This document shows positions 1,427 through 22,151 of a stretch of DNA of 64,000 nt, one piece after another. Location of the stretch: assembly GCA_903836515.1 (NCBI GenBank), contig CAILQW010000048.1, positions 316 through 64,315 on the forward strand. Direction: 5' to 3'. A model generated the notes under the pieces. That model made no database searches and was not told the origin of the DNA. It saw only the letters and a program-made list of their open reading frames with translations. Source of the DNA: Candidatus Omnitrophota bacterium. Lineage in GTDB: Bacteria > Omnitrophota > Gorgyraeia > Zapsychrales > Fredricksoniimonadaceae. A program made the translations under genes and the position numbers. Within the stretch, counting starts at the first letter, position 1; each line of letters opens with the position of its first letter.

Positions 1427-2311
1427 ATGGATAAGATTTTTTTCTTTATCGAAGGGCATCCAGTATTGATTTCCATTGGCATCGTTTTCTTGGGAGGAGT
1501 CGGGTTTCTCATTAAGAAATGGTTTTTCAATGAAAACACCTCCGCTGTCCCTTTTATTAAAGCGGGTGTGAGCATTTCAGCTGGTGGTGACATCGTTGTC
1601 GGGAATAAAGTGGTTCAGCACGTTTCGTCTAATACGGACACCAATGTTTCTGCAACAGACCGGCTGACGAATATTTTATTTGATGCTCACAATTGGCAGT
1701 ATGACGGCTTAAGTAAGGCATATTATAAGTCTGCGCCAGAATTCACGCTTGAATATGATTCAAAAGAACAAGCCGTTGAGGAACGGTGGTGGGGCAACTT
1801 TCTTGGTAAGGTTACAAAGTTCGATATTGTCTTTAAGTATCACGCGACGGCACTAAAAACAGCATCTTGCTGTCGTTTCGAGGGAGAGGCCTTTAGTATC
1901 CCGTATCCTGATGTGGATTATGTACGCATTGACGTTAGCAGGCAGAAAGATGCGCCCAATACGTATTCGTTATTTTATTTTTTAGAGGATAGCTTTGAAT
2001 TCGCGTTGCTTTTTCATTTATTTGGGGCGAATGCTTCTATCGTCGACAAAGAAAATCGGGAACGGCTTTTTAAAAAAGATGCAATAGCTTCTCAGGTTAA
2101 GCCTCCGATCAGATCGTTGCCGTTCATAGTTTTTAAGAACAACGAAGAAAAGAATGCTTTTATAAAGAAGTTGGAAGGCCATATTGGCGATTTTTTCCGT
2201 CAAAAAGCAATAACGCCTACAATGCAATTAGGGGCTCAGAAATTGCAGGAAGAAAAAGCTTTTGCGTATTGGGCGTATGATTTGTTTTTTAAATTAAAGG
2301 ATATTGAATAA
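1427..2311 (+). CDS. Hypothetical protein with a single N-terminal transmembrane helix, wedged between hsdS and hsdR with overlapping stop and start codons at both junctions
   Basis: 294-aa ORF; hydrophobic segment [18 protein letters not shown] near the N-terminus; its ATG lies 1 nt after the hsdS TGA and its TAA (2309-2311) overlaps the hsdR start region; no recognisable domain. Confidence 0.6.
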
Positions 2312-2321
2312 GTTTGGGGAT

Positions 2322-5300
2322 ATGATGAGGCAAATTATTACTGAATCCGAAGTCGAACAAGCCACGCTGGATATCCTCTCTGCTCAGGGGTACGCGATTG
2401 TCCATGGGCCGGATATAGCGCCTGATGGCCCTAATCCCGAAAGGCAGAGCTACGCGGACGTGGTCCTTGTCGGACGGCTTCGGGAGGCGATAGACCGGAT
2501 TAATCCCAAGATCCCGGCCGAGGGCAAGGATGAGGCGGTCAGGAAGCTTCTTCGTGTTGAAAGCCCCGACCTGCTGGTTAACAACCAGCGGCTTCATGCC
2601 ATGCTGGTCAATGGTGTGGATGTTGAGTATCGCCGGGATGATCAGGTCGTTTCAGATAAAATCTGGCTTTTTGATTTTGCCAATCTCACCAAGAATGAGT
2701 TCCTCGCCGTTAACCAGTTCACCATTATTGAAAACAATCACAATCGCCGACCGGACATCATTCTGTTTGTGAACGGACTGCCGATTGTTGTGCTTGAGCT
2801 CAAGAACCCTGCGGATGAGAATGCGACTGTTCACTCGGCCTTCAAACAGTTTCAGACGTACAAGCTTCAGATTCCTTCCCTCTTTCATTTCGCTGAGGTT
2901 TTGATCGCTTCTGATGGCTTTGACGCTAAAGCCGGGACGATCACGTCAGACTGGGAGAGGTTCCAGCCGTGGAAGACCGTCGACGGTAAGGATAAGGCGC
3001 ATGCGGCTATCCCGCAGATCGAAGTGCTCACCAAGGGTATGCTTAATAAAACGGTGTTGTTGGATCTGATTCGGCATTTTGTTGTTTTTGAGCAGGAGAA
3101 GGATAGCAAGGACGGCTCGCTCAAGATTTCCAAGAAGATTGCCGCGTATCATCAATATTACGCGGTCAACAAAGCCATCGATGAAACTCTTCGCGCGGCT
3201 TCGGCCAAAGGTGACCGGCGTTGCGGTCTCATTTGGCATACGCAGGGCTCCGGCAAGAGCTTGAGCATGGTTTTCTACACTGGCAAGCTTGTATTATCTT
3301 TGGATAATCCGACGGTGATGGTGCTGACAGATCGCAATGACCTTGACGATCAACTTTTCGGGACTTTCTCCCGGTGCAATGAACTTTTACGGCAGTCTCC
3401 GGTTCAGGCTGAAACCCGGTCACAGCTGAGGGATTATTTGAAGGTCTCCTCCGGCGGTGTTGTTTTTACTACTATTCAGAAGTTTTTGCCTGAAGAGCGT
3501 GGCGATACCTATCCGATTCTTTCCGATCGGCGGAATATTGTGGTGATTGCGGATGAAGCCCACCGGAGCCAATACGACTTTATTGATGGCTTTGCCCGGC
3601 ATATGCGTGATGCCTTGCCCAACGCGTCCTTCATCGGGTTTACCGGCACGCCAATTGAGCTTAAAGATAAGAATACCCGGGCAGTGTTCGGTGATTACAT
3701 TGACATTTATGACATTGAGCAGGCGGTTCACGATGGCGCTACGGTCCGTATTTATTATGAGAGTCGTCTGGCCAAGCTGGAATTAAGTGATGCTGAGCGT
3801 CCACAGATTGATCCGAACTTTGAAGAGGCGACCGAAGGCGAAGAGGTTAGCAAAAAGGAAAAGCTTAAAAGCAAATGGGCCCGGATGGAGGCTATTGTCG
3901 GTAGTGAGAAGCGCGTCCGGCAGATTGCCAAGGATATCGTGGATCACTTCGAGGAGAGGTCTAAAAACCTTGAAGGCAAGGGCATGATCGTTTGTATGAG
4001 CCGCCGGATTGCTTTTGACCTCCACAATGAGATTGTGAGGTTGCGCCCCCAGTGGTATCAAAAGGACGATGACAAGGGCGCTTTGAAAGTCATTATGACT
4101 GGCTCAGCGTCAGATCCGGTGGAGTGGCAGGAGCACATAAGGAACAAGCCACGCCGCCGGGACATTGGCGACCGGATGAAAGATCCTTCTGACCCGCTCA
4201 AGCTGGTCATTGTCCGTGACATGTGGCTAACCGGTTTTGATGTGCCGTCGCTTCATACGATGTATATCGACAAGCCGATGCGCGGTCATGGCCTTATGCA
4301 GGCGATCGCTCGCGTCAACCGCGTCTTCAAGGATAAGCCCGGCGGTCTGGTCGTAGACTATTTGGGCATTGCTGATGATCTTAAGAAGGCACTTTCCGAA
4401 TATACGGAAAGCGGTGGTGAGGGTAAGCCGACACTCGATCAGGAAGAGGCCGTCGCGCTCATGCTGGAGAAATATGAGGTTGTTACCGGCATGTTTCACG
4501 GATTTGATTTCCGCAAGTTCTTTTCATCATCCATTACAGAGAAAATGACGATCATCTCACTCGCTCAGGAACATATCCTTGGGCTTGATAAGGGCAAGGA
4601 TCGGTTTCTGGGTTATGTGACGCAGTTGTCACAAGCATTCGCGTTGTCTGTGCCTCACGCGGAGACATTTAAGATCAGGGATGATGTGGGCTTCTTTCAG
4701 GCAGTACGGTCCAGGATCGCTAAGTTTGAAACCGGCACCGGCAAGACAGATGACGACCTGGATTCCGCGATCAGGCAGATTATATCCAAAGCAGTTGTTT
4801 CCGACCGGGTGATTGATATCTTTGAAGCCGCCGGGATCAAGAAACCGGATATCTCTATCCTTTCTGATGAGTTTTTGGCAGAGGTTAAGGGGATGCCGCA
4901 TAAGAATCTCGCCTTTGAGCTGTTAAAGAAGCTTCTTAATGATGAAATCAAATCTCGCTCAAAACGGAATCTTATTCAGGGCCGGTCTTTTGCCGAGCTT
5001 CTGGAGCAGGCGATCAAAAAATATCAGAACAAGGCGATCGAAGCGGCCAAGGTCATTGAAGAATTGATCTCATTGGCCAAGAAGATGCGCGAGGCGGACA
5101 AACGTGGCGAGGATCTGGGGCTGACTTTTGATGAGGTGGCTTTTTACGATGCCCTTGAAGTCAACGATAGCGCGGTTAAGGTTCTTGGTGATGATGAGCT
5201 TCGGATGATTGCCCGGGAGCTGGTCCAAACGGTTCGCAATAATGTCACGATTGACTGGACGCTCAAGGAAAGCGTGCAGGCTAAGCTCCGGATCATGGTC

Positions 5301-5906
5301 AAGCGCATCTTGCGCAAGCACGGGTACCCACCGGATAAAGAAAAGAAAGCTACAGATACGGTCCTCGAACAGGCGACCCTCTTGTGCAAAGACTGGGCCG
5401 ATGTTGCGCCCGTTCGCGGAGCAGATGAGACACTTTTCTTCAGTGATGTGATCTCTGAAGGGGCTTTCGAGGAGGGTTATGTGCCGGTTTATGACCTTCA
5501 GGCCGTGGCAACGGCATTTGGCGAGCAACCAGCGCCATCAGTTAAAGGCTGGAAGCCGATGAATGGCCGAAAGATCAGTAAAGACATGTTTATTGCGCGA
5601 GTGGTCGGAAAATCCATGGAACCGACCATTGCGGACGGCAGCTGGTGTTTGTTCCGGCTTGAACGCGGAGGTTCCCGGCATGGTGTTTATCTGATTGAAT
5701 CCCGGCAGGTCAAGGACCCGGAAACCGGCTTCGCCTTTACGATCAAGCGGTATCATAGCGAAAAGGAAGATTTTGGTAACGGCCAGTGGAAGCACAAAAG
5801 GATTACGCTATCTCCAGATAACAAAACGTTCCCGGATATTATTATCGAGAATGTCGGCGGAGATGATTTTCGGGTTGTGGCGGAATTTGTGAATGTTATT
5901 TGTTAA
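2322..5906 (+). CDS. hsdR: Type I restriction enzyme R subunit HsdR (SF2 helicase-nuclease) with an appended C-terminal LexA-like S24 peptidase domain
   Basis: HsdR N-terminal region ([17 protein letters not shown]...); Walker A ([12 protein letters not shown]); DEAH box ([10 protein letters not shown]); motif III (FTGTPIE); helical C-terminal region typical of HsdR; then the S24-like tail. The ORF track starts at TTG 2304; ATG 2322 preceded by GGGGA is preferred. Confidence 0.85.
5481..5903 (+). other. LexA/UmuD/CI-like S24 serine autopeptidase domain fused in-frame to the C-terminus of HsdR
   Basis: [16 protein letters not shown] / [18 protein letters not shown] / FTIKRYH align with LexA VPLVGRVAAGEP / VSGMSMKDIGIMDGDLLAV / VTVKRLK; Ser codon 5613-5615 and Lys codon 5745-5747 of the catalytic dyad are both present. 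Confidence 0.7.
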
Positions 5907-6005
5907 ACGGGATAGTGGTCTCGGATGATTCCAGGGAAGTCATTTTAGATTGGCTACTGGGTAGCAATGGGGTCTGAGTTTTGAATTTATGGAGAGGCAA
6001 TTAAC

Positions 6006-7610
6006 ATGAAGATCGGACGCAATGACCTGTGTTTTTGCGGGAGCGGAAAAAAGTATAAGAAATGTTGCCTGGGTCGTGAGTTGCCCGGGGAACTTAAGCA
6101 TAAGACTCATGATATTTTGCCGGATCGATGGGAGATCGATTATGGCGAGCCGTGTTTGGACAAGGATTTCTTTGACCACAATGGATTGGCAGAATTTTCA
6201 GCAGCCAGAATGATCCAGGCGGCCATGCTGTTCCCCGATGCTGTTGAAGAGGTTGCCAGCGAGGTTCGTCTTGAAACGACCGGGTATCTTGCTGAACTTA
6301 AGGAGATCGAGGAGCTGACGAGGCCGCAGGAGATCGTGCGGTTTTTGAAAAAAGGTCCGGACCGCCTCAATTATCCGCAAGTGTTGGATAAATTTCTGGA
6401 TCATGAAAAAGAAACGGTGCTGTTATTGCTCGAAGAGATGCGAAGTTCCGACAATGAATTATTTGTGGAATGGGCTGTAAAATTGTTCTATGAATCGGAT
6501 TATGTACTTGCTGAAGATATCCTTGAGATTATCGAATTGCATCAGCATGATGCGTATGCGGTTTCTTTGCTTTGTATTTTGTTGGGTTCTTATGATCATC
6601 CCGCTATCCCGAAGTTGTTATGGGATTACTTTCAATATTTCAGGAAGAACTTCCGCGATGAGCTGTACCACGAAGGACCCTTGCTGGCGCTGCGTGAGAT
6701 CCACGAATATATGAATGAGCCGCGGGTATCAGATCCGGAAATGGCCTTGTGGGATGAAGATCGGCTGGCTACTTTTGACGAGAAGGAGCTGGTTGCGCGC
6801 ATGAAAGCGTTGGGTGTTCCTTTGGATAAAGAGACCTTTTTGAAAGATATACAGGGTCTTCATGCGGCAGAAAAGCTGGTTGATCGTTGGGTTGAGAAAT
6901 ATTCCATTCATTCAGTTGGGAACGACGAGGATTTTTTGTGGTTTGGTGCCATGGAGCTTTGGAAACGCTGGGCGCCAGAGGTGATGTTCGATGAGCGTTT
7001 GAGCGATATGATGCAGCGCGGATACGATTGTTTCAACCGAAGAAAGAATCGTGAAGGCTGTGATCTTTGGCTGGAGGTATGGGAAGTCTTCAAGGCGCGG
7101 CACGCGGGGCACGGCAGATCTCTGGAGGGAGTGGACAAGCAATATAGTGGTTCCCAGACTTGGCACAATTGGTGTCAGGATCTGGAGATGAACCTCGGCA
7201 ATCTTGTTCGTGTTTGCCCGGAGTACGCTCCCCGGGCGGTTACGTATTTCAGGGAATTTCGTTTGTTGTTGCCGGAGTCCGATCCATTGATTGTTCAGAA
7301 TATGATGATGGCCGAGGCTGAAGCCCTGATTTTTGGAGGAGACTTGGTTGCGGGAGAGGCTCTTTTTCGGAAAGTAGTGGAATCTTTTTCGGATGATGTT
7401 TGGGGTTATATCCGTTGGGGGGATGTGTTTGCATCGTCGATGTGGTCTTCTTTGGTGCCGCAGGATTTGACAAAAGCTGAAAAAATTTACCGCATGGCGA
7501 TTGGCCGCGGTCTAAAAGAGGAAAAGGAAGTCAATCGCCGGATCAGGGATATGGGAGAAACGCGCCAGGCTCACAAGAATGATCGGATAGGGTCAAGGTT
7601 GTTGAAATGA
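6006..7610 (+). CDS. SEC-C zinc-binding-motif protein (N-terminal CFCGSGKKYKKCC) with a large helical domain of unknown function
   Basis: 534 aa; canonical SEC-C motif at residues 8-22; good RBS GGAGAGG upstream; the remainder matches no family I recognise. Confidence 0.6.
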   Translation: MKIGRNDLCFCGSGKKYKKCCLGRELPGELKHKTHDILPDRWEIDYGEPCLDKDFFDHNGLAEFSAARMIQAAMLFPDAVEEVASEVRLETTGYLAELKEIEELTRPQEIVRFLKKGPDRLNYPQVLDKFLDHEKETVLLLLEEMRSSDNELFVEWAVKLFYESDYVLAEDILEIIELHQHDAYAVSLLCILLGSYDHPAIPKLLWDYFQYFRKNFRDELYHEGPLLALREIHEYMNEPRVSDPEMALWDEDRLATFDEKELVARMKALGVPLDKETFLKDIQGLHAAEKLVDRWVEKYSIHSVGNDEDFLWFGAMELWKRWAPEVMFDERLSDMMQRGYDCFNRRKNREGCDLWLEVWEVFKARHAGHGRSLEGVDKQYSGSQTWHNWCQDLEMNLGNLVRVCPEYAPRAVTYFREFRLLLPESDPLIVQNMMMAEAEALIFGGDLVAGEALFRKVVESFSDDVWGYIRWGDVFASSMWSSLVPQDLTKAEKIYRMAIGRGLKEEKEVNRRIRDMGETRQAHKNDRIGSRLLK

Positions 7611-8425
7611 TGCGACAGGAGAATGCGGTGAGCACGGGATTGACCTTTCAAGAAATCTGTCCGGACTTCGACGAATGGCCAGACAGATGGCAAATAATGT
7701 CCGAGGACAGACCGTATGGACGGGAGTTGCTGACTATTTTCAAGCCTTTTTGTGAGGATCTGGTGGCCAAAGGTTTCTCGAAAAGCACGATTAAAAGACA
7801 TTTGGGTTTCTTGTGGGTTTTGGGCGGCGAGCTGATCGAGGAGATCAATGAGTACGAGGGAAAAAGGACCCGACCGGCCATGGACTTGTTGATGGATCAA
7901 TTGGACCCGGATGGAGGCCCTTATTGTCGTCATTTGGAAGGCGAGTCAGAGCATCGTGCTTTTGACGCGACCTGTAAGAAGCTTTACAAGTTCCTGCAGG
8001 AGAGTCAGGCGAAGGATCGTGAAGCCGGCGCTCCGTCCGGCTACGATACATCGTGGGATCTTGTTTTGGATGAAAAAGGTAATCGGCCAACTAATGAAGC
8101 CGCGTATGATGAGAAAAGCCGTGAATGGCAATGGCGTGACTGGAAGAAGTGGTTGGAAGAAAATCTCGTTTTCCCATTTGATGTTATTCGCAAAGAGGAT
8201 GATGACGATTCTATCGAGATTGCGGCAAATGAGCCTTTCAGCGTTGGGCATCAGATGACCGCGTTTGGATTGGCCGGTGAGATGGGCGGGTACGGGATTA
8301 TTGCTCGGGTGAAGGAACGTCGCCGAAAAGGGCACGCTCCTCTTTGTGACCTTGAGGTGACGCCTCCCGGCGACAGGAACTTCTGGCCTGTTAGGGAGTA
8401 TGTTGTCTGGTTTGCTAACCGGTGA
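7607..8425 (+). CDS. Hypothetical acidic protein, translationally coupled to the SEC-C protein gene
   Basis: 272 aa; the start ATG overlaps the upstream TGA (ATGA at 7607-7610); no recognisable domain; followed by palindromes TTGGTCGACCAA and CTACCGAG...CTCGGTAG. Confidence 0.5.
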   Translation: MMRQENAVSTGLTFQEICPDFDEWPDRWQIMSEDRPYGRELLTIFKPFCEDLVAKGFSKSTIKRHLGFLWVLGGELIEEINEYEGKRTRPAMDLLMDQLDPDGGPYCRHLEGESEHRAFDATCKKLYKFLQESQAKDREAGAPSGYDTSWDLVLDEKGNRPTNEAAYDEKSREWQWRDWKKWLEENLVFPFDVIRKEDDDDSIEIAANEPFSVGHQMTAFGLAGEMGGYGIIARVKERRRKGHAPLCDLEVTPPGDRNFWPVREYVVWFANR

Positions 8426-8592
8426 AGTTTTAGTGATGTGGTCAAAAAAGTATCTGTTGCTTGTTTTTTCTTGTTGGTCGACCAAGCAACTACCGAGGAT
8501 TGCTCGGTAGTTCAATTGAGCGTTTGTTCTGGCTGCGGCAAAAAGTCAAAAGAAGGATGCTCGGAAGGTAAAATAAATGACAGGCGTGATAA

Positions 8593-9981
8593 ATGAATAA
8601 TAAAACTTTTCAGAAAATAATTGGCGCGGCAGAATCTACGACTATCGAGTGGAAGAAATCTCTCTCGGTATTTCACGAGATCATGGAGACCATATCCGCA
8701 TTCTCGAATACCGAAGGCGGGAAGATTCTTGTTGGCGTTTCTGATGATGGCGAGGTCTTGGGCGTTCAGATCGGCAAGGGAACGATGGAAGATCTGGTGA
8801 ACAAGATCGGACAGCATACCGACCCCAAAGTTTTTCCAAAGATCTCTGTTAAGAAGGTTGGCGGCAAGGACGTAATCGTTATTGATGTGAAAGAGTCACG
8901 GGATCATCTGATTCTGGCGGATGGCTTGCCGTATAAACGGGTTGGCCGGACATCGCCGAGGATGAGCAAAGATGAGTACGAGCGCCTGATTTTGGAGAAG
9001 CACCGGGGTGCGTTGTCTTTTGATGGTGAGGTTTGCAAGGGCGCCGTGATGACCGATATTGATGCTGAAAAAGTCATGCACTTTCTGTCTGTTGCGAGGC
9101 AGGAGCGCGGGCTTGATATTGATGCGAAGAGTTCGGTCAAAGATGTTTTGATGCGGCTTGATTTACTTAAAGGGAGCAAGTTGACGAATGCGGCTATTTT
9201 GTTGTTCGGGAAGAGGCCGCGGTCATTCTTTACCCAGTCTGAAAGCAAGTGTGTCCGGTTTAAAGGACTTGATGTCACGGGAGAGATGATTGATCTTAAG
9301 CCGATCAATGGTGATATTGTTGCTCAGCTCAGGGATATTGAGAAGTTTATTTATGATCATATTTCCATGCGAGCATGGATTGAGTCGGGGAAAATGGAGC
9401 GGCAGGAGAAATGGGAATATCCTCCCAAGGCTATTCGTGAAGCTTTGGCGAATGCCATGGCGCATCGGGATTTTCGTACAACATCGAAAGTCCAGGTCAG
9501 AATTTTTGATGACAGGATTGAGTTCTGGAATCCGGCCATATTACCGCAAGGCTGGACAGCAGAAACGCTCAAGCAAAAACATGAGTCCAAGCCGTTTAAT
9601 CCGTTGTTGGCAGAGGCCTTCTTTTGGATCAAGTATGCTGAAGAAGTCGGCACTGGCACGGGCAAGATCATTACATGGTGCAGGGGGTGGGGTTTGCCTG
9701 ATCCGGACTTTGAGTATGCTGGAAGTAGTCTGGTTGTAACGTTGCGCAAGACGAAATTAACCGAACAGTATTTGAAAGATGCGAATCTTTCAAAACGGCA
9801 GGTGAGTGCTTTTGAGCATATGAAGACAGGTCTTAAAATGACCAGTATCGAATATGCGAAAATGTTTGGTGTAACAGACAGGACGGCGCGGAATGATTTG
9901 TCTGCGATGGTTGAAAAGGGGCTTGTTAAGAAAGTCGGGACGGGTGATAGAAACACTGCGTATGTGTTAGCGGAAATTTAG
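8593..9981 (+). CDS. COG2865-type protein: Schlafen/AlbA_2 (divergent AAA) domain plus HATPase-like domain plus C-terminal HTH, the family often mis-annotated as RecG-like or as a transcriptional regulator
   Basis: 462 aa; N-terminal AlbA_2-like region (IEWKKSLSVFHEIMETISAFSNTEGGKILVGVSDDGEVLGV); central ATPase-like region; C-terminal HTH (SIEYAKMFGVTDRTARNDLSAMVEKGLVKK). Confidence 0.7.
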   Translation: MNNKTFQKIIGAAESTTIEWKKSLSVFHEIMETISAFSNTEGGKILVGVSDDGEVLGVQIGKGTMEDLVNKIGQHTDPKVFPKISVKKVGGKDVIVIDVKESRDHLILADGLPYKRVGRTSPRMSKDEYERLILEKHRGALSFDGEVCKGAVMTDIDAEKVMHFLSVARQERGLDIDAKSSVKDVLMRLDLLKGSKLTNAAILLFGKRPRSFFTQSESKCVRFKGLDVTGEMIDLKPINGDIVAQLRDIEKFIYDHISMRAWIESGKMERQEKWEYPPKAIREALANAMAHRDFRTTSKVQVRIFDDRIEFWNPAILPQGWTAETLKQKHESKPFNPLLAEAFFWIKYAEEVGTGTGKIITWCRGWGLPDPDFEYAGSSLVVTLRKTKLTEQYLKDANLSKRQVSAFEHMKTGLKMTSIEYAKMFGVTDRTARNDLSAMVEKGLVKKVGTGDRNTAYVLAEI

Positions 9982-10392: not shown

Positions 10393-10536
10393 GCGCTGAT
10401 GGTGGCTTTCAAGCGAGCGGGCATCATTTGCGAGGACAAAGTCAATCAACTCCACATATCGCAAAAGTGTGGATTAAAGTGATTGCATGATTCCCAAAAG
10501 GGTCAGTTTGTGGAAATTTAAACAAGGGAGGCTATC

Positions 10537-11028
10537 GTGGGCTATTCAAATGAGAACACGCAACGCGTGATTGAAGCGTTTAACGGGAAGAACATGGATC
10601 TGGACGACGGGTCGAAATGGCATTTCAGCGTTCAGCAACCGCCGTCGAATTGGGCGGCGCAGGATAAGGTTGTGGTCGAGAAAGCGGGGATGATGTATAC
10701 GGTCCGTAATCTGACCAAGAAGTCAAATGGCATTGCCGCGTTCATACAGGATGCTTTGGAAACAACGCCTAAAGATAATACGAAGAAATTTTTGGAACCG
10801 ATCTGTGATGAGGAGCTGACAATCGTCAAGATTCATCCTGATGGTTTGATTGAATTGAATGAAGGCCCGAGCTATCGTCCCGGCGGAGTCAATCCGGCCA
10901 AGATCGATTATAAAATGTGGGAGCCGGGGAATGCCGTTAAACTTGTTTCAAAGAATTCAAGATTCGGGCTATGTGAAATGCAAAATTTGACCAAGAGACG
11001 GTCCATGGATGTCATGCAGGACAAATAA
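10537..11028 (+). CDS. Hypothetical small protein, paralogous to the next ORF
   Basis: 163 aa; GTG start with RBS AAGGGAGG 5 nt upstream; shares the DGS(K/Q)W...W...V.V...G....YT(V/I).N pattern with the following ORF. Confidence 0.5.
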   Translation: MGYSNENTQRVIEAFNGKNMDLDDGSKWHFSVQQPPSNWAAQDKVVVEKAGMMYTVRNLTKKSNGIAAFIQDALETTPKDNTKKFLEPICDEELTIVKIHPDGLIELNEGPSYRPGGVNPAKIDYKMWEPGNAVKLVSKNSRFGLCEMQNLTKRRSMDVMQDK

Positions 11029-11041
11029 GAAAGGGCTCTTT

Positions 11042-11437
11042 ATGGAATCAAAACGCTTTAGTGGGGACTTGGTTAATAAAGTTTTGAAGCCCAAGGAAAC
11101 GAAAAAGGCCAACGCGTTAGAAGTGGCTCTTGAGAAAAGGGTTGATCATGATCGGAGATACAAGAATTTGAACCAGCCGATCAAGATTGAAAGCGTTGAG
11201 GCTGATTGTAAGACGATAGTTCTCAAGGACGGATCACAATGGTCTGCTGTTTATGGTTTCGGGTTAAGTGAGGATTACGCCACTGACTGGGCGGCCAATG
11301 AGACTGTCATCGTTATTGGGACCAAGGGCGGCGACAGTGCGGTTTATACAATAAAGAATATCAGTTCCGGGAGCCAGTCGCGCTGGTCTTTTGTTGAGTA
11401 TGTGGATGGCAGGGGGCCGCAATCAAAAGGAAGATAG
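11042..11437 (+). CDS. Hypothetical small protein, tandem paralog of 10537-11028
   Basis: Start moved to the internal ATG at 11042 (MESKRF), just after the upstream stop; same motif pattern (DGSQWSAVYG...VYTIKNISSG). Confidence 0.5.
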   Translation: MESKRFSGDLVNKVLKPKETKKANALEVALEKRVDHDRRYKNLNQPIKIESVEADCKTIVLKDGSQWSAVYGFGLSEDYATDWAANETVIVIGTKGGDSAVYTIKNISSGSQSRWSFVEYVDGRGPQSKGR

Positions 11438-11440
11438 GAT

Positions 11441-12247
11441 ATGGAAGAGCCCAAAAGGAATAAGAATTATAGCGACCAGGTTCTGAATCTTACTCAGGCA
11501 AATGAGTTATTACAGGATCATGCCAAAGAAATCCGGGCGTTTTATGATCAGAAGAAGACGCCTCTTTTTGAGATCGCCTTTTTTATCTTGGATAAATATT
11601 CAGAGTGGAGAAGGGCGAACCCCGGCGCGAAGTTTAGTTATTATCTATTTAATCTAATTAAGGCTGGAAAACTTAGCAAGAACAAGAAGTCGACATTAAA
11701 GTTAGGGTTTAAGGTCACCCAAGTTTTTTCTGATTTAAGAAACCCGAACAAGAGACGCATGTTATTTGATTCTTATCGTGAGATTGCAAATGCCGATATA
11801 ACTCAGGAACAGAAGGACGAATTGCGGCAAGAGGCTGAAGACAATGGATATAGTGGCAGGAAAATTCGAGAAATCATCGATGCCAGGTTCAATAATGGTT
11901 TAAAGGGCAAGAATGGAATTGTTACAAAGCGCATGTTTTGTGAAGCTGATCCGAAGGGTGAAGAAATACTATGGAAGCTGATTAATTTAAGATTCTTGGT
12001 AGAGATTGGTTTAGATAAAGTTCGCTTGGTGCGTCAGAGCGTCGCTGCTGCTAGGCCTGCGGAAATGCAGAGCCCTAATTTTGATGAAATTTGGGTCACT
12101 CTGGAAAATGAGGAGGTGCGGGCTTCGAAACGGAAACATATTTTTTATAGAGACCACGATAACTTCATTGCCATTGTTAAAAGCTCTCTTGAATTGTGGA
12201 AACCTGAGGAAGGAGACAGATTTATTTTAAAAAAACTTCGCAGATAA
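11441..12247 (+). CDS. Hypothetical protein (268 aa, basic, Lys-rich)
   Basis: RBS AAGGAAG before the ATG; no recognisable domain. Confidence 0.5.
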   Translation: MEEPKRNKNYSDQVLNLTQANELLQDHAKEIRAFYDQKKTPLFEIAFFILDKYSEWRRANPGAKFSYYLFNLIKAGKLSKNKKSTLKLGFKVTQVFSDLRNPNKRRMLFDSYREIANADITQEQKDELRQEAEDNGYSGRKIREIIDARFNNGLKGKNGIVTKRMFCEADPKGEEILWKLINLRFLVEIGLDKVRLVRQSVAAARPAEMQSPNFDEIWVTLENEEVRASKRKHIFYRDHDNFIAIVKSSLELWKPEEGDRFILKKLRR

Positions 12248-12348
12248 ACTACAGCCTGTCTTTTTAGTTAACGATTTATAACCTGTCAATCCGTTCTTAA
12301 CTTGCAATTCTGCAAGTATTTAGAGCGGATTTTTTATTGCCTTCCGTA

Positions 12349-12373
12349 GGTTCGGCAACGCCGAACCTGTTTT
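12349..12373 (+). terminator. Hairpin GGTTCGGCAACGCCGAACC followed by a T-rich run; possible terminator or operator
   Basis: Perfect 8-bp stem and 3-nt loop followed by TGTTTTG; a related palindrome TTCGGCTGCCGAA recurs at 12453-12465. Confidence 0.4.
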
Positions 12374-12588
12374 GACCCATTTAACACATAATACATGTAG
12401 AGAGTTATAAACTGGCAAGCATTTCGTTCTTTCTCAAGATATAGGTCATAATTCGGCTGCCGAACTTATGAATGGCCAAGTTCAACACTTAAACCTTAAG
12501 ATATCAGCATTTCTGTGGGTTCGATCTTTTTGATTGAGCCCACATCTTTACTTATTTATTAAACCAAAAACAAAAATGGAGAAAACAC

Positions 12589-13845
12589 ATGAATATCGAA
12601 AAAGTGAGCATCAACAGGATTAACCCTGCTGCTTATAACCCCAGAATCGACCTTAAGCCGGGGAACAAGGAATACGAGAAGTTGAAGCAAAGCATTGATA
12701 CCTTTGGATATGTGGAGATTTTGGTCTGGAATTGCCGCACCGGCAATCTGGTGGGTGGGCATCAAAGGCTCAAAATCCTGCTTGCTCAAGGGGTTGAGGA
12801 GGTGGAGGTCAGCGTGGTTGACCTTGATATAGAGAAGGAGAAGGTCCTGAATCTGGCCCTGAATCGGGTTAGGGGTGATTGGGATCAGGACAAACTGGCC
12901 GTATTGATGCAGGAGTTAACAAAATTGCCTGATTTCAATACAGCTCTGACCGGATTCAATCTTCCGGAGATCAACAAGATCCTCACTGACTTTGAGGTAG
13001 CCAATGAGGATGTGTTTAACGGCGCTTCCATAGATCCCAAGGACAATGCTGTTACGGTCCTTGGGGATCTCATTGAATTGGGCGGTCATCGGATTTTATG
13101 CGGTGATTGTTCCAAGCCCGAAGATCTGAAGCGGCTGTTTGGCGATCAAAAAGCCGATATGGTCTTCACGGACCCGCCTTACGGATGTTCGTATAACAGC
13201 GGCAATCGACCCGGGGCCAACGGTAACGGGAAATGGGCCATGATCGAAAATGATGACAAGCCCCAGCCCGAGTATGAGAAATGGTTAGCGGGTGTTATTG
13301 ATAACTTGACCCCGTTTATTGCAACGGGCGCTCCGTTTTATATCTGGAACGGCAGTCGTCAGTTTGCCCCCATGTACGAGATGCTTCTTAAGAACGGGAT
13401 GCATATATCGTGCGTTATCACGTGGGCAAAAGAATCGTTCTCGGCTGGTTATGTTGATTATCACCACCAGACCGAGTTTTGCATCTACGGATGGAAAGAT
13501 CAAAACGGCGCGCACAGGTTTTTCGGCGCAAATAATGAAACCAACCTCTGGCAGATCAAGCGTGATTCCAGAAGCGATGCCATTCATCCCACTCAGAAGC
13601 CTGTGGCTCTGGCCCATCGAGCGATCAGGAACAGTTCAAGAGGCGGGGAGATCGTTTTCGACGCGTTCTTAGGATCAGGGACCACCTTGATCGCGGCGGA
13701 TGGGTTAAAGCGCCGGTGTTTTGGAACTGAGATTAAACCTCACTTTGTTGACGCCATTGTTCGGCGATACGTCAAGGTTGCGGGTGCAGGCGGTGTTTCA
13801 AAAGAGGTGTTAACAAAATACAAACTTGGGGAAGGGGGGCAGTAA
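12589..13845 (+). CDS. ParB-like nuclease domain fused to a DNA (N6-adenine/N4-cytosine) methyltransferase; a phage-type orphan methylase
   Basis: N-terminal ParB/Srx motif (NLVGGHQRLKIL); DPPY motif (VFTDPPYGCSY) followed by the AdoMet motif (FDAFLGSGTTLIAA); this order indicates a beta-class amino-methyltransferase; the architecture is typical of phage packaging regions. Confidence 0.8.
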   Translation: MNIEKVSINRINPAAYNPRIDLKPGNKEYEKLKQSIDTFGYVEILVWNCRTGNLVGGHQRLKILLAQGVEEVEVSVVDLDIEKEKVLNLALNRVRGDWDQDKLAVLMQELTKLPDFNTALTGFNLPEINKILTDFEVANEDVFNGASIDPKDNAVTVLGDLIELGGHRILCGDCSKPEDLKRLFGDQKADMVFTDPPYGCSYNSGNRPGANGNGKWAMIENDDKPQPEYEKWLAGVIDNLTPFIATGAPFYIWNGSRQFAPMYEMLLKNGMHISCVITWAKESFSAGYVDYHHQTEFCIYGWKDQNGAHRFFGANNETNLWQIKRDSRSDAIHPTQKPVALAHRAIRNSSRGGEIVFDAFLGSGTTLIAADGLKRRCFGTEIKPHFVDAIVRRYVKVAGAGGVSKEVLTKYKLGEGGQ

Positions 13846-13877
13846 AACAACAAGGTTGGTCAAACGGTAAAACAACA

Positions 13878-14306
13878 ATGAAAGTTAAAAAAGAAAGGGA
13901 TCATTTTATGGTTTTCAAATATCAAAGTAAGCGGCATCCGGATGCAATCAATGTTTTGCGTTTGGTTGAAGATGAAGACTTGGATGTAAGTGAAATAACA
14001 AAAGAGATGCGACAGGGTTGCATTGAAATCCTCACACGCGAGGCATACTCAGACTCAGCAATTGCAATGAAATTAAGAACAACAATAAGTGTTGTTGAGT
14101 CGGATCAAAACGAAATACAAGCGGTCAATTCAAAGGCCTTGTATGTCAGTCGTGTGCGAGTTGAGATTGAGACGGCTAAAGGGAAGTCACGAGAGATTCG
14201 AAGAACTCGCCAGGACTTTAAGAAGGGGCCCGGTGAGGATGCCTATAAAGCCATAACAAGGGAGATCGTTATCAAGGAGGCAAGAAAACATGCCAAACGA
14301 AACTAA
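13878..14306 (+). CDS. Small phage-associated protein with a putative sigma-70 region-4-like HTH
   Basis: 142 aa; the QGCIEILTREAYSDSAIAMKLRTTISVV segment resembles an HTH; alternative start at ATG 13908. Confidence 0.45.
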   Translation: MKVKKERDHFMVFKYQSKRHPDAINVLRLVEDEDLDVSEITKEMRQGCIEILTREAYSDSAIAMKLRTTISVVESDQNEIQAVNSKALYVSRVRVEIETAKGKSREIRRTRQDFKKGPGEDAYKAITREIVIKEARKHAKRN

Positions 14307-14964
14307 TAAGGAAGAGCTTTCGACCTTTGAAATGCTCAAACGGATTCAGGCGGGGAGCCTGAATCCGAGGACGCTGACGGAAGAGCAGCGGCAGGAATGC
14401 GTTGAACTGTTAAGGCTGGAAGGCCAGACGCACGCGGCCATTGCGGAACTTCTCAAGTGGAACATCAAAACAATCAAACGCGACTGGAATGAAATTCGCA
14501 GCAGGAATGCGAAAAAACCGACACCGGAATTCGCGCTGCGTCATATCGCGGAGTTGATCGAGCAGTCCGGTTCAAAACACGACCATCTGACGCGAATGGC
14601 GCGTGGAGATGATGGAACGGTTCAGGAGCGCTCTCAGGCGGAATACTATGCGTTTAAAGTCCTGAGTGAGACCACGCAGTTGTTACAGACCATGGGGTAT
14701 TTGCCATCTAAGGCAACGAAGTTCATGGGGGATGTTTATCACCACCATGACGATGGCCGAGATCCCAAGGAAATGAGAGCCGAGATCGACCGGATAGAAA
14801 AGATCGTGTCCGAGGAGGGGATACAAGATCCGGCCATGCAGGCACGGTTGGAGGCGTTAAGAAAGAAAGTCGACCTGGCTGAAGTGGATAAACAAATAAC
14901 CGATTTGTCGGCGAATGTCGCTGATAAAACAACAACAAACAAGGAGGATGGAAGCAATGGCTAA
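14290..14964 (+). CDS. Putative terminase small subunit (HTH-containing protein immediately upstream of and overlapping terL)
   Basis: 224 aa; RBS AAGGAGG; HTH-like segment EEQRQECVELLRLEGQTHAAIAELLKWNIKTIKRD; synteny with terL. Confidence 0.45.
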   Translation: MPNETNKEELSTFEMLKRIQAGSLNPRTLTEEQRQECVELLRLEGQTHAAIAELLKWNIKTIKRDWNEIRSRNAKKPTPEFALRHIAELIEQSGSKHDHLTRMARGDDGTVQERSQAEYYAFKVLSETTQLLQTMGYLPSKATKFMGDVYHHHDDGRDPKEMRAEIDRIEKIVSEEGIQDPAMQARLEALRKKVDLAEVDKQITDLSANVADKTTTNKEDGSNG

Positions 14965-16570
14965 TATTAATCTCAAGGAATTCGGTAAACAGAACGTGAT
15001 GGTATTTGCGAGGACATATTTCTCGCATTACCTGAAAACAAATCCGTGTGGGTTTCATCGGGAGCTTTGCGAATTGTTGCAAGGCTTGAATACAAAACGC
15101 GGTGGCCGATTGGCGGTCGCCGCCCCGCGTGGAAGCGCGAAGAGTACCTTCGTCAGTTTGATCTATGTTTTATGGTGCATTTGTTATTCCAAAGAGCAGT
15201 ACATCGTTTTGCTCTCGGACACCAGCGATCAGGCTGAAGGTCTTCTGGCGCACGTTAAAAATGAGCTCGAGAACAACGAGCATTTGAGACGTGATTTCCC
15301 GGAGGCTTGTATCGCGGAGGATGATAAAAAGTTGGGCGTTTGGAAAAAAGAGGAGATCGTCACAAAGAATAACATTAAGGTGACGGCGCTCGGCGCAGGC
15401 CAGAAGATACGAGGCCGGAGGCATCAGGAACACCGTCCCACGTTGATCATTCTTGATGATATTGAGAATGATGAAAACACGCAGAACGGTGAATCAATGG
15501 ACAAGCTGAACGAATGGTTCGAGCGGGCGGTCCTGAAAGCGGGAACGACCACAACCAATGTTGTTTTGGTTGGGACCATTCAGCATTACGGGTGTCTTTT
15601 GTCCCGGTTAACAAAGGAAGAAGCAACGGGATGGAATAAACGGATCTACCGGTCGGTTATTTCATCTGCCAAGAGGGAAGACCTCTGGGCAAAATGGTTC
15701 ACGCTTTACAGAGGGCTCGATTGTTACGGTCAAAATGAAGGGGCCGCTGCGGCAGCGGACTTCTTTAAGGACAACGAGAAGGAAATGATAGACGGGGTAT
15801 CTGTCCTCTGGCCTGAAAAGGAAAGTTATCAGGACTTGATGGTCATGCGTGAAGAGGAAGGCGAGAGCAGCTTCAACGCTGAGAAACAAAATGAACCGGT
15901 TGATCCGAAGAATGCATTCTTTAAATGGGATGGCTTTCAGTTCTGGGATCAGCAATACAGGAATGAGGAAGAGCTAAGATCGGCGTTTGGCGACAAGCTG
16001 GCATATTATGCGGCTGTTGATCCGAGTTTGGGGAAGCCCGGTAAGCGTGGGGATTATTCGGCGATAGTGGTCATTGCTAAGCATGTTGATACGAAAGCGG
16101 CATTTGTTTTGGTCGCTGACATTGCTAAAAGAACCCCGGATAATCTGGTGCAGGCCGTTATAAACCTTGGCCGATTCTACAGGTTTAGCGCGGTTTTCGT
16201 TGAGGCCAACCAGTTTCAGGAGCTGCTGGTTCGTGACATTGAAGAGAGAGCGTACAGCATGGGGATTTCGCTCAATATTCAAAGGGTTACGAGTCGGCTC
16301 GACAAGCTGGCCCGAATTCAAGGTCTTGAGCCTTGGATCACTCAAGGAAAAATCAAGTTCGCTCAAACCCAGAGGCTATTGCTGGATCAGTTTAGGCATT
16401 TTCCAAAAGGGGCGCATGATGACGGTCCGGACGCTTTGGAGATGGCGATCTCAGGGCCTGATAAACGAAAAGGCGGGTTTGTCATAGTTGATCTTAATAA
16501 TGACCCTTACGATGACGATGATGACGACGATGATGATGGGCCGTGTTATAGCGTCAATTCAATCATATAA
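14957..16570 (+). CDS. terL: Phage terminase large subunit (ATPase plus nuclease) with a C-terminal poly-Asp tail
   Basis: Walker A (AAPRGSAKST); LLSDTSDQAEGLL; C-terminal RNase-H-like nuclease region; a D9 run near the C-terminus; start chosen at ATG 14957, 9 nt after AAGGAGG, while the ORF track begins at 14915. Confidence 0.85.
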   Translation: MANINLKEFGKQNVMVFARTYFSHYLKTNPCGFHRELCELLQGLNTKRGGRLAVAAPRGSAKSTFVSLIYVLWCICYSKEQYIVLLSDTSDQAEGLLAHVKNELENNEHLRRDFPEACIAEDDKKLGVWKKEEIVTKNNIKVTALGAGQKIRGRRHQEHRPTLIILDDIENDENTQNGESMDKLNEWFERAVLKAGTTTTNVVLVGTIQHYGCLLSRLTKEEATGWNKRIYRSVISSAKREDLWAKWFTLYRGLDCYGQNEGAAAAADFFKDNEKEMIDGVSVLWPEKESYQDLMVMREEEGESSFNAEKQNEPVDPKNAFFKWDGFQFWDQQYRNEEELRSAFGDKLAYYAAVDPSLGKPGKRGDYSAIVVIAKHVDTKAAFVLVADIAKRTPDNLVQAVINLGRFYRFSAVFVEANQFQELLVRDIEERAYSMGISLNIQRVTSRLDKLARIQGLEPWITQGKIKFAQTQRLLLDQFRHFPKGAHDDGPDALEMAISGPDKRKGGFVIVDLNNDPYDDDDDDDDDGPCYSVNSII

Positions 16571-16919
16571 AAGGGCGGATCATGGCGGACAGCAGCTGAA
16601 GGGCGCAGGTTTTCGCGGACTGCGCTCTTCTCTTTTGCTCACAATTAAGCAGTGTCCCCGCGAGGGACATCGACGGAAAGGGGACATTTCTGGTTTTCAT
16701 GAGGGGACATGTTGTAAGTGTTTGATCTTGAAGGCTTTCATTGTTTTTGTCTCGTCGTGAAAAGGGTCAAGAAGGACATGTTTTGGTTCTATTTGTCCCT
16801 ACAAACTTATCTCTAAAACGCTGGTTTTGGATTTTTTGTGATAGTATAAGCAGAGCTTGTTGGAGAGGTAGACAGCGGCGTGTCACCACTCCCCCCAGCT
16901 TGTTTTTTCTCTTAAAAAA

Positions 16920-16957
16920 CTAAAACCTCGTTCCCTTTGGGCGAGGTTTTAGTTTTC
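16920..16957 (+). terminator. Rho-independent terminator hairpin (CTAAAACCTCG ttccctttggg CGAGGTTTTAG) followed by TTTTCTTT
   Basis: Perfect 11-bp stem followed by a T-run on the + strand. Confidence 0.6.
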
Positions 16958-16973
16958 TTTAGAAGAAAAACAA

Positions 16974-16997
16974 CACCCAAAAGGATTCTTTTGGGTG
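16974..16997 (-). terminator. Hairpin CACCCAAAA-ggattc-TTTTGGGTG; acts as a terminator for the minus-strand genes and is followed by a T-run on the minus strand
   Basis: 9-bp stem; the minus-strand read continues TTGTTTTTC; sits at the 3' end of the recombinase remnant. Confidence 0.5.
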
Positions 16998-16998
16998 C

Positions 16999-17424
16999 TT
17001 ATTCCCGTCGTGGAAAGATGCAACTGGCCCCGATATTGCCAAAATCCTGATGCCAGAGAGTATGGGGAGGCGTATAACAAGTATAACGACAGCACGCAAA
17101 GTGAATGATCTTGCCGTGATTATGGATCAGATCGTTGATCTTGATCTTGTCGATGTCATTGCGGGTCATCCGGTCGGTGATGTCAAAGATGATGTGCTTG
17201 ATCTTTGGATGGGCTATGGCAAATTCGATCACTTGATTAAATGCCACGCGATCTTTCTTTTTATTCCAGGCAGATTCGATGACCCTCCAGGTTTTGACGA
17301 TCCTCAGGTTTCTGCGATCCGCATAGTCTTGCCCAAGCCTTTCTTGTGCATCTAAAGAAAAGCCGTCATTTTGCTTCTTGTTGGAGATGCGGCCATAATG
17401 GAGGGCGTCTTCTTGTTGCTCCAT
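16999..17424 (-). pseudogene. Serine recombinase (resolvase/invertase family) N-terminal catalytic-domain remnant, truncated after about 110 residues
   Basis: YGRISNKKQNDGFSLDAQ (cf. YARVSTxxQ..SLxxQ) and FDITDRMTRN (cf. DRLGRD) are present, but the frame then degenerates (..ACCRYTCYTPPHTLWHQDF..) and runs into the terminator hairpins. Confidence 0.6.
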
Positions 17425-17426
17425 GG

Positions 17427-18263
17427 TTACTTTACCTTTGCAGGTTTTGGCAGAAGATTCTTTTGTGGGACCTGGACGTAGTTGACCTTGCTGACGACCT
17501 TCTGGCCGGTTTCCTGTTCCAGTTTCTTGCGCGCGATCCCGGCAACGCCGCCGCCGCGAACAGCCACGGCTTTATTGGCCACGAATCCTTCCGGGTGCTC
17601 GACCTTGGTGATCTGGGTGGTTGACGCTTCACCCAGCATGGAGAAGATGAGTTCAAGATCCGTCATGTGGTCGCGCAGGTTCTCGTGCTTGAGACCTTTC
17701 AGTTTCTTGTAGTTGCTGGGTGTCAGGCCAAAGGTCGCTTTGGATATTTCGGCGGTCAGGATCTCGTACTCGCGGTTCTCCTGGACCCCGTGCTTCTTCC
17801 ACTGGTCGGTCAACTCTTCCCGGATGGCAATGCCACGCATCCGTTTCTCTATCCAGTCATCGGAATATCCCTTGGCCTTGTAAAGCGCACGCGTGCGCTT
17901 GGTACCCAGTTCCGGGTTCTCGATCTCCTGGATGCGCTCGTAACCGACCCGTGCCAGCCATTTCTTGAACGGCTCGGCCTTTGGGGAGGGGATGGATTGG
18001 ATGATCCGGAATACGCCTTCTGTGTTGGCACAATTCGTTTCCCGCCGCTTGCCATCGGGCGCCAACAGTTCAAGTGGGGTACAAATTGTACCCCAGTTGC
18101 TGTCCAGTTGAGAATCGCGCTGGCGCATCTTCTTGATGTATTGCCTGATGTCAGCGCTGTCAGTTAAGGCTTCGATGACATCTGCTACAGAAAACCACCA
18201 CTCATCGTTATGAATAGTCTTGCGGATCGCGATCTTTGTTTCTGGTGCTGGTTGTTGTGTCAT
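17427..18263 (-). CDS. Bro-N domain protein (phage antirepressor / DinD-like)
   Basis: N-terminal Bro-N signature (KIAIRKTIHNDEWWFSVADVIEAL); start moved to the internal ATG (MTQQ, plus-strand CAT 18261-18263), which has an AAAGGA RBS and avoids a 73-nt overlap with the XRE gene. Confidence 0.7.
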   Translation of the reverse strand: MTQQPAPETKIAIRKTIHNDEWWFSVADVIEALTDSADIRQYIKKMRQRDSQLDSNWGTICTPLELLAPDGKRRETNCANTEGVFRIIQSIPSPKAEPFKKWLARVGYERIQEIENPELGTKRTRALYKAKGYSDDWIEKRMRGIAIREELTDQWKKHGVQENREYEILTAEISKATFGLTPSNYKKLKGLKHENLRDHMTDLELIFSMLGEASTTQITKVEHPEGFVANKAVAVRGGGVAGIARKKLEQETGQKVVSKVNYVQVPQKNLLPKPAKVK

Positions 18264-18286
18264 ATGCGTTGTCCTTTCGGATGGTG

Positions 18287-18490
18287 TCATTTGATTTTTA
18301 AGAGTTTCTTGATGTGGTGCGTTTGGATCTTGTTCGGCGATGATTTTCGGTTGAACCATCTGTTGACCGTCGAGAAAGCGACGCCGAGTTTGTCGGCCAG
18401 GGCCTCCTGCGTGACGCGCTTTTCAAGGCGGTAGTTTTCGAGTTTGGCAACAATGTCCATTGGGTCTACTCCTTTGTGTTTGGTCTTCAT
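18287..18490 (-). CDS. XRE-family (Cro/CI-like) HTH transcriptional regulator
   Basis: 67 aa; RVTQEALADKLGVAFSTVNRWFNRKSSP is a canonical XRE HTH; an internal ATG (MDIVAKL) is an alternative start. Confidence 0.7.
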   Translation of the reverse strand: MKTKHKGVDPMDIVAKLENYRLEKRVTQEALADKLGVAFSTVNRWFNRKSSPNKIQTHHIKKLLKIK

Positions 18491-18509
18491 TGCATATTAT
18501 AGTGTTGTT

Positions 18510-19199: not shown

Positions 19200-19375
19200 T
19201 GCCTACCAAAGAGAATCAATCGTCGCCGTTTCGTTTGTATCAGCCACATCAATCACTCGTCCGCGATCCAGATCACTCATGACCGTTACAAACTTGTGCC
19301 CGCGACCAAAATTTTTCTGCCGCCCACACTTGTAGCAACATTCGACCCTCCTTGAATGTTAGGTGCAGTATTCTA

Positions 19376-22140: not shown

Positions 22141-22151
22141 GGAGAATAAAG

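Follow-up and report, generated by a model that had tools for sequence, protein, structure and literature searches.

Does a type I restriction subunit carry a LexA-type protease at its C-terminus, and, if so, what would such a module do there? The question is raised by a 64,000-nt stretch of DNA from a Candidatus Omnitrophota bacterium (GCA_903836515.1, contig CAILQW010000048.1, positions 316-64,315, forward strand), which we refer to here as the window. An initial annotation had described one of its genes, hsdR, as encoding a complete HsdR whose last ~140 residues form an S24 peptidase domain of the kind found in LexA. Only for a few systems, such as the ClpXP control of EcoKI, is it understood how DNA-targeting defence enzymes spare their own cell once its DNA has been damaged or recombined or has lost its methylation, and type IC enzymes are not among them. 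We therefore asked whether the fusion is genuine, what the appended domain is and which role would best account for it.

A type I HsdR with a LexA-type tail

The open reading frame (ORF) was found to run without interruption over 1200 codons on the forward strand (Table 1), as the initial annotation had it, and we kept its numbering, in which residue 1 is the TTG at 2304. Judged from the sequence, the ATG pair at 2322/2325 is the probable start of translation, since an identical database protein, P0121, is 1193 amino acids (aa) long. Ahead of the tail, the four Pfam domains of HsdR are all present, with E values for the motor of 1.8e-82 (SWI2_SNF2), 8.4e-21 (ResIII) and 5.7e-23 (T1R_D3-like); the TIGR00348 hsdR model matches the ORF with E = 2.5e-189 and 631 bits (cut-off 284), and the Walker A motif GSGKS and the DEAH box are readable in the translation. 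The PADLOC REase_I model (PDLC03040) aligns end-to-end with aa 5-1024 only, and the S24 tail is therefore extra to HsdR; relatives of this HsdR without a tail are 1016-1034 aa long. We conclude from these profile matches that residues 12-1029 are a genuine, complete type I HsdR, as had been claimed. A helix-turn-helix (HTH) domain was absent from the Pfam scan of the protein, its N-terminal partner being HsdR and no repressor; by its domain content the protein is no LexA or CI repressor, despite the 'LexA' labels on some relatives.

We then examined the tail. The Pfam Peptidase_S24 model (PF00717) scores 27.4 bits over residues 1090-1194 of the full-length protein, and 33.3 bits (E = 4.2e-8) when the tail is searched alone, against a gathering score of 23.3. 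PHROG_4, a family of CI-type repressors, aligns with tail residues 24-164 (E = 1.8e-11), a span that takes in the strand upstream of the catalytic core. An AlphaFold2 (AF2) model of aa 1033-1200, made with 107 homologues, had a mean predicted local distance difference test score (pLDDT) of 90.4 and a predicted template modelling score (pTM) of 0.85. When this model was compared with the PDB by Foldseek, all 25 matches at E <= 1e-3 were LexA (from E. coli, Thermotoga, Pseudomonas and Mycobacterium) or lambda CI; UmuD' came next at E ~3e-2, with a probability of 1.0 for LexA, lambda CI and UmuD' alike, followed by signal peptidases. A phmmer search of the tail against PDB sequences gave no match, the NCBIfam scan of the tail gave nothing significant (UmuD subfamily, E = 0.1), and none of the PADLOC models covers the tail. 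Because sequence searches against PDB chains were marginal or empty, we regard the tail as a divergent S24 clade. Overall, a score above the Pfam threshold and a LexA-like predicted fold indicate that the tail is a genuine LexA-type S24 domain, and the alignment on which the initial annotation relied is upheld.

The codons of the putative Ser-Lys dyad, Ser1104 and Lys1148, lie exactly where they had been placed (Table 1). Neither residue varies among the 107 close relatives of alignment A2 or the 70 diverse fusions that make up alignment A3, and Ser1104 was also found in variants overlooked by a first motif search. The pair is kept in every readable relative, more than 250 sequences in all; P0379, which is probably truncated, is unreadable there. 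This conservation suggests that the module is likely to be catalytically competent. The linker that joins it to HsdR is the least conserved segment of the protein (20-90% identity) and includes a helix, placed at tail residues 10-16 by a tail-only AF2 model. In an AF2 model of 500 residues covering T1RH-like_C and the tail, pTM fell to 0.38 and pLDDT was below 50 in the linker at aa 1034-1042 and directly past the putative scissile bond at aa 1070-1074; on account of these values the S24 domain appears to be flexibly tethered to HsdR.

An assembly fusion had been raised as a concern, and we considered whether misassembly, a frameshift or read-through could have merged hsdR with an independent S24 gene. 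In a few relatives (L012 and Halomonas L085) the S24 domain is indeed encoded in a frame of its own that overlaps the upstream one, as such an artefact would predict. Against this, the 100% identical P0121 stems from a separate ENA assembly, and the architecture HSDR_N to T1RH-like_C followed by PF00717 recurs in over 55 additional clusters defined at 90% identity (~1,180-1,243 aa, 66-95% identical). These clusters were drawn from ENA, JGI, NCBI and Logan, on contigs of up to 785 kb, and belong mostly to Omnitrophota, with Candidatus Omnitrophus magneticus (UniRef A0A0F0CVQ3) as a named member. Guanine-cytosine (GC) content does not change across the junction between hsdR and tail, and purifying selection acts on the tail in the hsdR frame, with a ratio of nonsynonymous to synonymous substitution rates (dN/dS) of ~0.07-0.15 (~0.07 against L005 and 0.09 against L043; only the L005, L043 and tail values were used, body values being unreliable where the open frame is N-terminally truncated). 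With the fusion recurring in many independent assemblies and no frameshift between hsdR and tail, we rejected an artefact, whose probability we regard as negligible.

We also noted that in L012 (3132-6480) a 948-aa ORF, by its position a truncated hsdR, overlaps a 183-aa S24 ORF in another frame (overlap 5929-5978). This locus looks like the HsdR-S24 fusion in split form, and many of the 'stand-alone' S24 database entries of 105-180 aa may likewise be split fragments or pieces at contig ends.

The putative cleavage-site strand and a proposed off switch

In self-cleaving S24 proteins, the bond that is cut joins Ala or Cys to Gly and precedes the catalytic core (PMC8565304). In the window protein, family alignments place the homologue of the LexA Ala84-Gly85 bond at Ala1069-Thr1070 (5508-5513), within the motif LQAVA↓TAF; distant relatives read LKAAA↓GAF at the corresponding position, and alignments of the tails give the family consensus P-[VIL]-x-x-L-x-A-[AV]-A-[G/T/S]-x-F. 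From A1069 to Ser1104 there are 35 residues, equal to the spacing from A84 to S119 in LexA. The initial annotation had taken F-G (F1072-G1073) as the putative scissile position. We rejected this bond, since the G1073 column is variable and both the alignment and the 35-residue spacing point to A1069-T1070, three residues earlier.

Across the family, positions P3-P1 are a nearly invariant A-x-A, and P1' is Gly in most members and Thr or Ser in others. How these residues are distributed depends on the sample: P1' was Gly in 25, Thr in 88, Ser in 1 and Ile in 0 of the 114 readable close hits; among the 80 best genome loci, 69 of them readable, the numbers were 33, 27, 8 and 1; and the 94 readable representatives at 50% identity had 85, 5, 4 and 0. 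An Ala-Gly site is also seen in some HsdR fusions (P0175, P0177 and P0181). By its sequence, the window protein thus belongs to a minority Ala-Thr sub-clade, which strictly conserves the Ser-Lys dyad, the A-x-A strand and the Thr.

In the reading that we favour, the tail would be a switch that turns the nuclease down by self-cleavage, and we put the probability of this inferred function at roughly 0.45. In the proposed sequence of events, the strand would dock into the active site (Ser1104/Lys1148) of its own or a partner's module, the chain would be cut after A-x-A, at Ala1069-Thr1070, and the S24 domain would be severed from HsdR. In LexA and CI the S24 domains are dimerisation domains, and severing them lowers activity; type I, ISP, IIG and IIS-like enzymes need two molecules to cut both strands. 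If, by analogy with LexA and lambda CI, the S24 domain here dimerises as well, cleavage would uncouple nuclease molecules that have to cooperate for DNA cutting. It may further unmask a ...QAVA-COOH end (...AAA in relatives), akin to the ...VAA end of cleaved LexA, which is reportedly a ClpXP signal. Either effect would turn restriction down on a DNA-damage signal, most plausibly RecA-single-stranded DNA filaments, and the outcome would be a built-in restriction alleviation or autoimmunity fuse. We prefer a switch in the off direction for four reasons: restriction must act ahead of any damage signal; type I enzymes are known to be down-regulated proteolytically after damage; the partners of the module are precisely the subunits able to damage self DNA; and many of these partners need two molecules to cut, and the S24 domains of LexA and CI dimerise. 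Proteolytic down-regulation of type I enzymes follows DNA damage or recombination, with ClpXP acting on HsdR in the case of EcoKI, and no mechanism is known for other families (PMC3874165, PMC4231737, PMC11109961). Further, the LexA pocket for RecA F203 is formed by V79, V82, F111, L113, V146 and V153 (bioRxiv 10.1101/2023.10.30.564768). A manual motif alignment, suggestive only, gives Y1063, A1067, F1096, A1098, L1130 and F1145 as the equivalents here, five of the six hydrophobic.

Several points weigh against the off switch. First, the bond homologous to the scissile bond of LexA is Ala1069-Thr1070 in the window protein, where textbook self-cleavage sites have Ala-Gly or Cys-Gly, and substitutions of LexA Gly85 reportedly block cleavage. 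The main caveat is therefore that the Ala-Thr clade may cleave poorly or slowly, differently, via another trigger, or not at all. Second, the tail profile matches LexA chains marginally (E = 0.15-0.8), and the secondary structure of the segment around A1069-T1070 differs between two AF2 runs. Third, self-cleavage of family members is predicted from sequence, and RecA* as the trigger is proposed purely by analogy. Finally, a cut at residue 1069 leaves HsdR intact, so that any effect needs an unproven dimerisation or degron step; any ClpXP link of the tail through an exposed ...AVA end is speculation.

The same substitution lends itself to a different explanation, in which the S24 domain of the Ala-Thr clade is a non-cleaving interaction domain that dimerises HsdRs or their complexes, or binds RecA filaments, without proteolysis, much as UmuD' or the C-terminal domain of lambda CI acts once cleaved or uncleaved. 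Thr takes the place of the P1' Gly in the window protein and in 88 of the 114 close hits, which would fit such a role, as would the established dimerisation of LexA and CI C-terminal domains and the requirement of the partner enzymes for two molecules in double-strand cutting. We nevertheless consider it unlikely. Ser1104, Lys1148, the A-x-A strand and the Thr are all conserved in the Ala-Thr clade, which is unexpected if catalysis and docking are dispensable; the Gly/Ser/Thr series of small P1' residues looks more like tolerated substrate variation than decay; and the clan-related Ser-Lys signal peptidases accept many P1' residues.

The S24 module on other defence enzymes

When the tail profile was searched against 1.84 billion representative proteins, 714 of these matched at E < 1e-30; with the limit set to E <= 1e-3 the number was 2,624. 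The host proteins range from ~150 to 1,969 aa, and the S24 module forms the very C-terminal end of the protein in 109 of 116 representatives with a measurable position. Pfam scans of 70 long representatives identified as partners ResIII helicases (14), SLFN-g3/DUF2075 helicases (12), Type ISP enzymes (11), an MrfA-type Zn-binding domain (7), the type IIG families Eco57I (6) and MmeI (2), RE_endonuc (3), AlwI, PLD nucleases and HsdR (2 each) and LlaJI (1). Scans of single matches added a DpnI C-terminal domain on P0016 and a TnsA-like endonuclease on P0017. No stand-alone HsdM or HsdS family was present among the 25 listed of 43 partner families. We also looked at possible fusions to STAND NTPases and rejected them, the nSTAND3, nSTAND5 and AAA_22 matches being weak (best E ~4e-5). 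In a Halomonas protein, nSTAND/AAA matches coincide with a strong SLFN-g3 helicase match, and such matches are probably P-loop cross-hits of helicases.

With one genome taken per GTDB species, at least 586 loci have the S24 module. The 80 best of these loci all lie in metagenome-assembled genomes, from phyla that include Omnitrophota, Planctomycetota, Bacillota, Nitrospirota, Acidobacteriota, Myxococcota, Actinomycetota and Verrucomicrobiota. No relative of the tail was found in the phage collection, and one, from Halomonas, in the plasmid collection. This cultured carrier is Halomonas sp. PA16-9 (L085, NZ_CP040452.1, about 1,652,241-1,652,675), which has a DUF2075 helicase and an A-G S24 module. 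In L085 (5968-8438) the DUF2075/SLFN-g3 helicase ORF (5968-8028) overlaps the S24 ORF (7959-8438) in a different frame, and this overlap may be programmed or result from a frameshift or from an error in sequencing; the two ORFs are flanked by a PIN_8 gene on one side and by AbiEi/AbiEii on the other, within a PIN/AbiE defence island, and the record is unannotated in PLSDB.

Relatives of 800-1,166 aa have been auto-annotated as 'SOS-response transcriptional repressor LexA', and we regard the 'LexA' labels on long S24 carriers as a systematic mis-annotation. The IMG entries P0251 (1166 aa) and P0292 (832 aa), for instance, take this label from their C-terminal S24 module. In a shorter entry, P0036 (287 aa), Pfam finds two S24 stretches in tandem.

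Taken together, these distributions identify the S24 subfamily, as far as sequence can, as a mobile C-terminal accessory of many DNA-cutting and DNA-translocating defence enzymes across many phyla. The initial annotation knew of no description of the HsdR-S24 architecture. This holds as far as the full-text literature covered here goes, in which we came upon no account of an S24 domain joined to HsdR or another restriction or defence enzyme, a type I review and papers on conflict systems included, many subscription papers lying beyond this coverage. It does not hold for the databases, where the fusion already sits unremarked as HsdR, as one case of a broader fusion pattern that is apparently undescribed. 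A wider claim would be that the whole clade is a mobile self-cleaving fuse on dangerous defence subunits, in which cleavage triggered by RecA filaments on damaged self DNA would switch the enzyme off, either independently of ClpXP or by priming for it; we rate this as less likely than not.

How is the module distributed among HsdRs themselves? When HsdR bodies were placed on a neighbour-joining tree, proteins with a tail (60) and without one (57) interleaved, with ~20 parsimony changes among the 117. Close relatives with bodies 97% identical have tails only 74-87% identical, and in five HsdRs the body is 74-80% identical to that of the window and the tail only ~40%, three of the five (P0175, P0177 and P0181) being typed A-G. 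Between the window and L005, the number of synonymous substitutions per synonymous site (dS) is 1.84 in the tail and 0.68 in the body. Because of this difference in dS, the separate history of the tail is ascribed to recombination and not to relaxed selection. This implies that recombination exchanges tails between hsdR alleles and that the gene is a mosaic. We conclude, on the strength of these sequence comparisons, that the S24 tail has been gained, lost and swapped repeatedly on the HsdR backbone, and that it is an accessory or regulatory element rather than a core one.

This divergence also bears on the opposite polarity of a switch. If the tail restrained the enzyme and cleavage triggered by phage infection, through phage single-stranded DNA, recombinase filaments or some other cue, freed a more active or less specific nuclease, in a manner resembling abortive infection, the faster divergence of the tail (74-87% against 97% for the body) could mean an arms race, and the occurrence of the module in defence islands and on many defence enzymes would be in keeping with it. 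The divergence is, however, at least partly due to recombination, dS being higher as well; tail-less HsdRs are common among close relatives, so that the core enzyme presumably works without release; and an on switch gated by damage would suit restriction-modification (R-M) poorly, as restriction must precede any damage signal. We accordingly judge activation to be distinctly improbable and retain the self-cleaving off switch as the better account.

Operon, neighbourhood and comparison with known systems

The features of the window are listed in Table 1. Upstream of hsdS, the contig L001, which matches the window, has the 3' end of a gene, presumably hsdM, and relatives have full hsdM-(yhcG)-hsdS-x-hsdR operons. 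No Pfam domain was found in the 294-aa ORF between hsdS and hsdR; in relatives this slot holds unrelated genes (174 + 92 aa in L002, 646 aa in L004). The GC content of hsdS and the 294-aa ORF is 0.36-0.45, compared with ~0.50 for hsdR, a difference that points to shuffling, or to a separate origin, of the operon's specificity end.

Table 1. Features of the window, with positions counted from its first nucleotide
Feature	Position (nt)	Strand	Details
hsdS specificity subunit, 439 aa	106..1425	+	Pfam Methylase_S, two target-recognition repeats, E = 1.8e-37
294-aa ORF between hsdS and hsdR	1427..2311	+	hydrophobic N-terminus; PADLOC candidate defence family PDC-S50, E = 5.5e-16; phrog_29016
hsdR-S24 fusion ORF	2304..5906	+	1200 codons from TTG; stop 5904-5906; one uninterrupted frame
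HsdR N-terminal nuclease domain (HSDR_N)	2337..2957	+	aa 12-218; Pfam E = 3.3e-50
Superfamily 2 (SF2) motor	3150..4361	+	SWI2_SNF2/ResIII aa 283-518; T1R_D3-like aa 618-686
HsdR helical C-terminal domain (T1RH-like_C)	4410..5390	+	aa 703-1029; Pfam E = 1.3e-137; canonical HsdR end
Flexible linker	5391..5480	+	aa 1030-1059; holds conserved LFFSD helix (5430-5447)
Putative cleavage-site strand, ending ↓TAFG	5481..5522	+	family alignments; scissile homologue within
S24 (LexA-like) catalytic core	5571..5903	+	aa 1090-1200; PF00717, AF2, Foldseek
Predicted catalytic Ser1104	5613..5615	+	codon tcc; motif GKSMEP (LexA GMSM)
Predicted general-base Lys1148	5745..5747	+	codon aag; motif TIKRY (LexA TVKRL)
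SEC-C protein, 534 aa	6006-7610	+	only N-terminal SEC-C zinc motif (CFCGSGKKYKKCC) recognisable; directly downstream of hsdR-S24
462-aa protein	8593-9981	+	SLFN_AlbA_2 + HATPase_c_4 + HTH; PADLOC matches to pAgo-associated and SIR2-PNTD models
ParB_N/N6_N4 DNA methylase	12589-13845		in phage-derived remnant
Terminase large-subunit C-terminal domain	14915-16570		in phage-derived remnant
Bro-N protein	17427-18359	-	in phage-derived remnant
RND efflux pump	22089-26866		ordinary chromosomal gene past remnant
FeoB	27245-29242		ordinary chromosomal gene past remnant

Downstream of hsdR, we considered the SEC-C protein as a conserved partner and rejected it, as a motif search recovered it at 2 of 79 loci, both of them the same locus (the window and L001); it is probably not a partner. 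In L002 and L003, a SEC-C/TPR protein occupies the same downstream position. The 462-aa protein further along may be another defence or regulatory gene of the same island. A phage-derived remnant (~10500-19200) adjoins the R-M operon, and an Rfam scan of the window gave no match.

The neighbourhood is relevant to one more explanation, according to which the S24 core would cut a phage anti-restriction protein, a repressor or a host factor in trans, instead of or besides its own linker. An invariant catalytic dyad would be expected of such a protease, and cleavage between molecules occurs with UmuD and, when forced, with LexA. We rate this as very unlikely, because no conserved candidate substrate gene lies nearby, the SEC-C neighbour being confined to the two loci above, and because every module brings a LexA-like substrate strand with it, canonically spaced from Ser, a signature of self-processing.

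If the self-cleaving off switch is correct, a protease of the SOS-sensor type hard-wired onto a nuclease subunit would provide a testable, post-translational answer to the question of self-protection. The S24 module recurs on at least a dozen enzyme classes in hundreds of genomes, and such a switch could then be a general regulatory principle of restriction alleviation and autoimmunity control, extending the 'cleavable dimerisation domain' principle of LexA and CI from transcription factors to enzymes; it would also offer engineers a portable tag for degradation or uncoupling in response to damage. Should the switch idea prove wrong, the S24 family would still merit recognition in defence annotation, where some members are mislabelled 'LexA repressor' and PADLOC models lack the family.

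Compared with LexA, lambda CI and UmuD, the tail has the same predicted fold (Foldseek probability 1.0), the same G-x-S-M and T-[IV]-K-R dyad motifs and the same placement, C-terminal to a functional domain via a flexible linker; as in LexA, the putative substrate strand lies 35 residues upstream of Ser. It differs in that its N-terminal partner is a restriction motor-nuclease of ~1030 aa, whereas theirs is an HTH domain or a short peptide; in that P1' is Thr in place of Gly in the Ala-Thr clade, with A-x-A at P3-P1; in a 7-residue insertion before Lys and an extended hairpin (DPETG...YT.KRY.SEK...W.H); and in the conserved LFFSD helix upstream, its sequence similarity to LexA chains being marginal. 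With canonical type I HsdRs (HindI/EcoR124-like, T1RH-like_C), the window protein shares all four HsdR domains and the hsdM-hsdS-hsdR operon, and ordinary HsdRs of 1016-1034 aa have bodies 72-78% identical to its own, but it adds a 170-residue linker and S24 module past the canonical end. The proposed role resembles the ClpXP-mediated alleviation of EcoKI in being a proteolytic shut-off of HsdR when host DNA is at risk (PMC3874165, PMC4231737, PMC11109961). In EcoKI, unlike here, the protease is a separate one that recognises stalled translocating complexes, with no S24 domain and no self-cleavage. CapH/CapP and the WYL regulators BrxR and CapW are alike in concept, as they couple defence to a stress or damage signal; these are separate factors or proteases that control expression, whereas the sensor-protease described here is fused to the effector itself and would act post-translationally.

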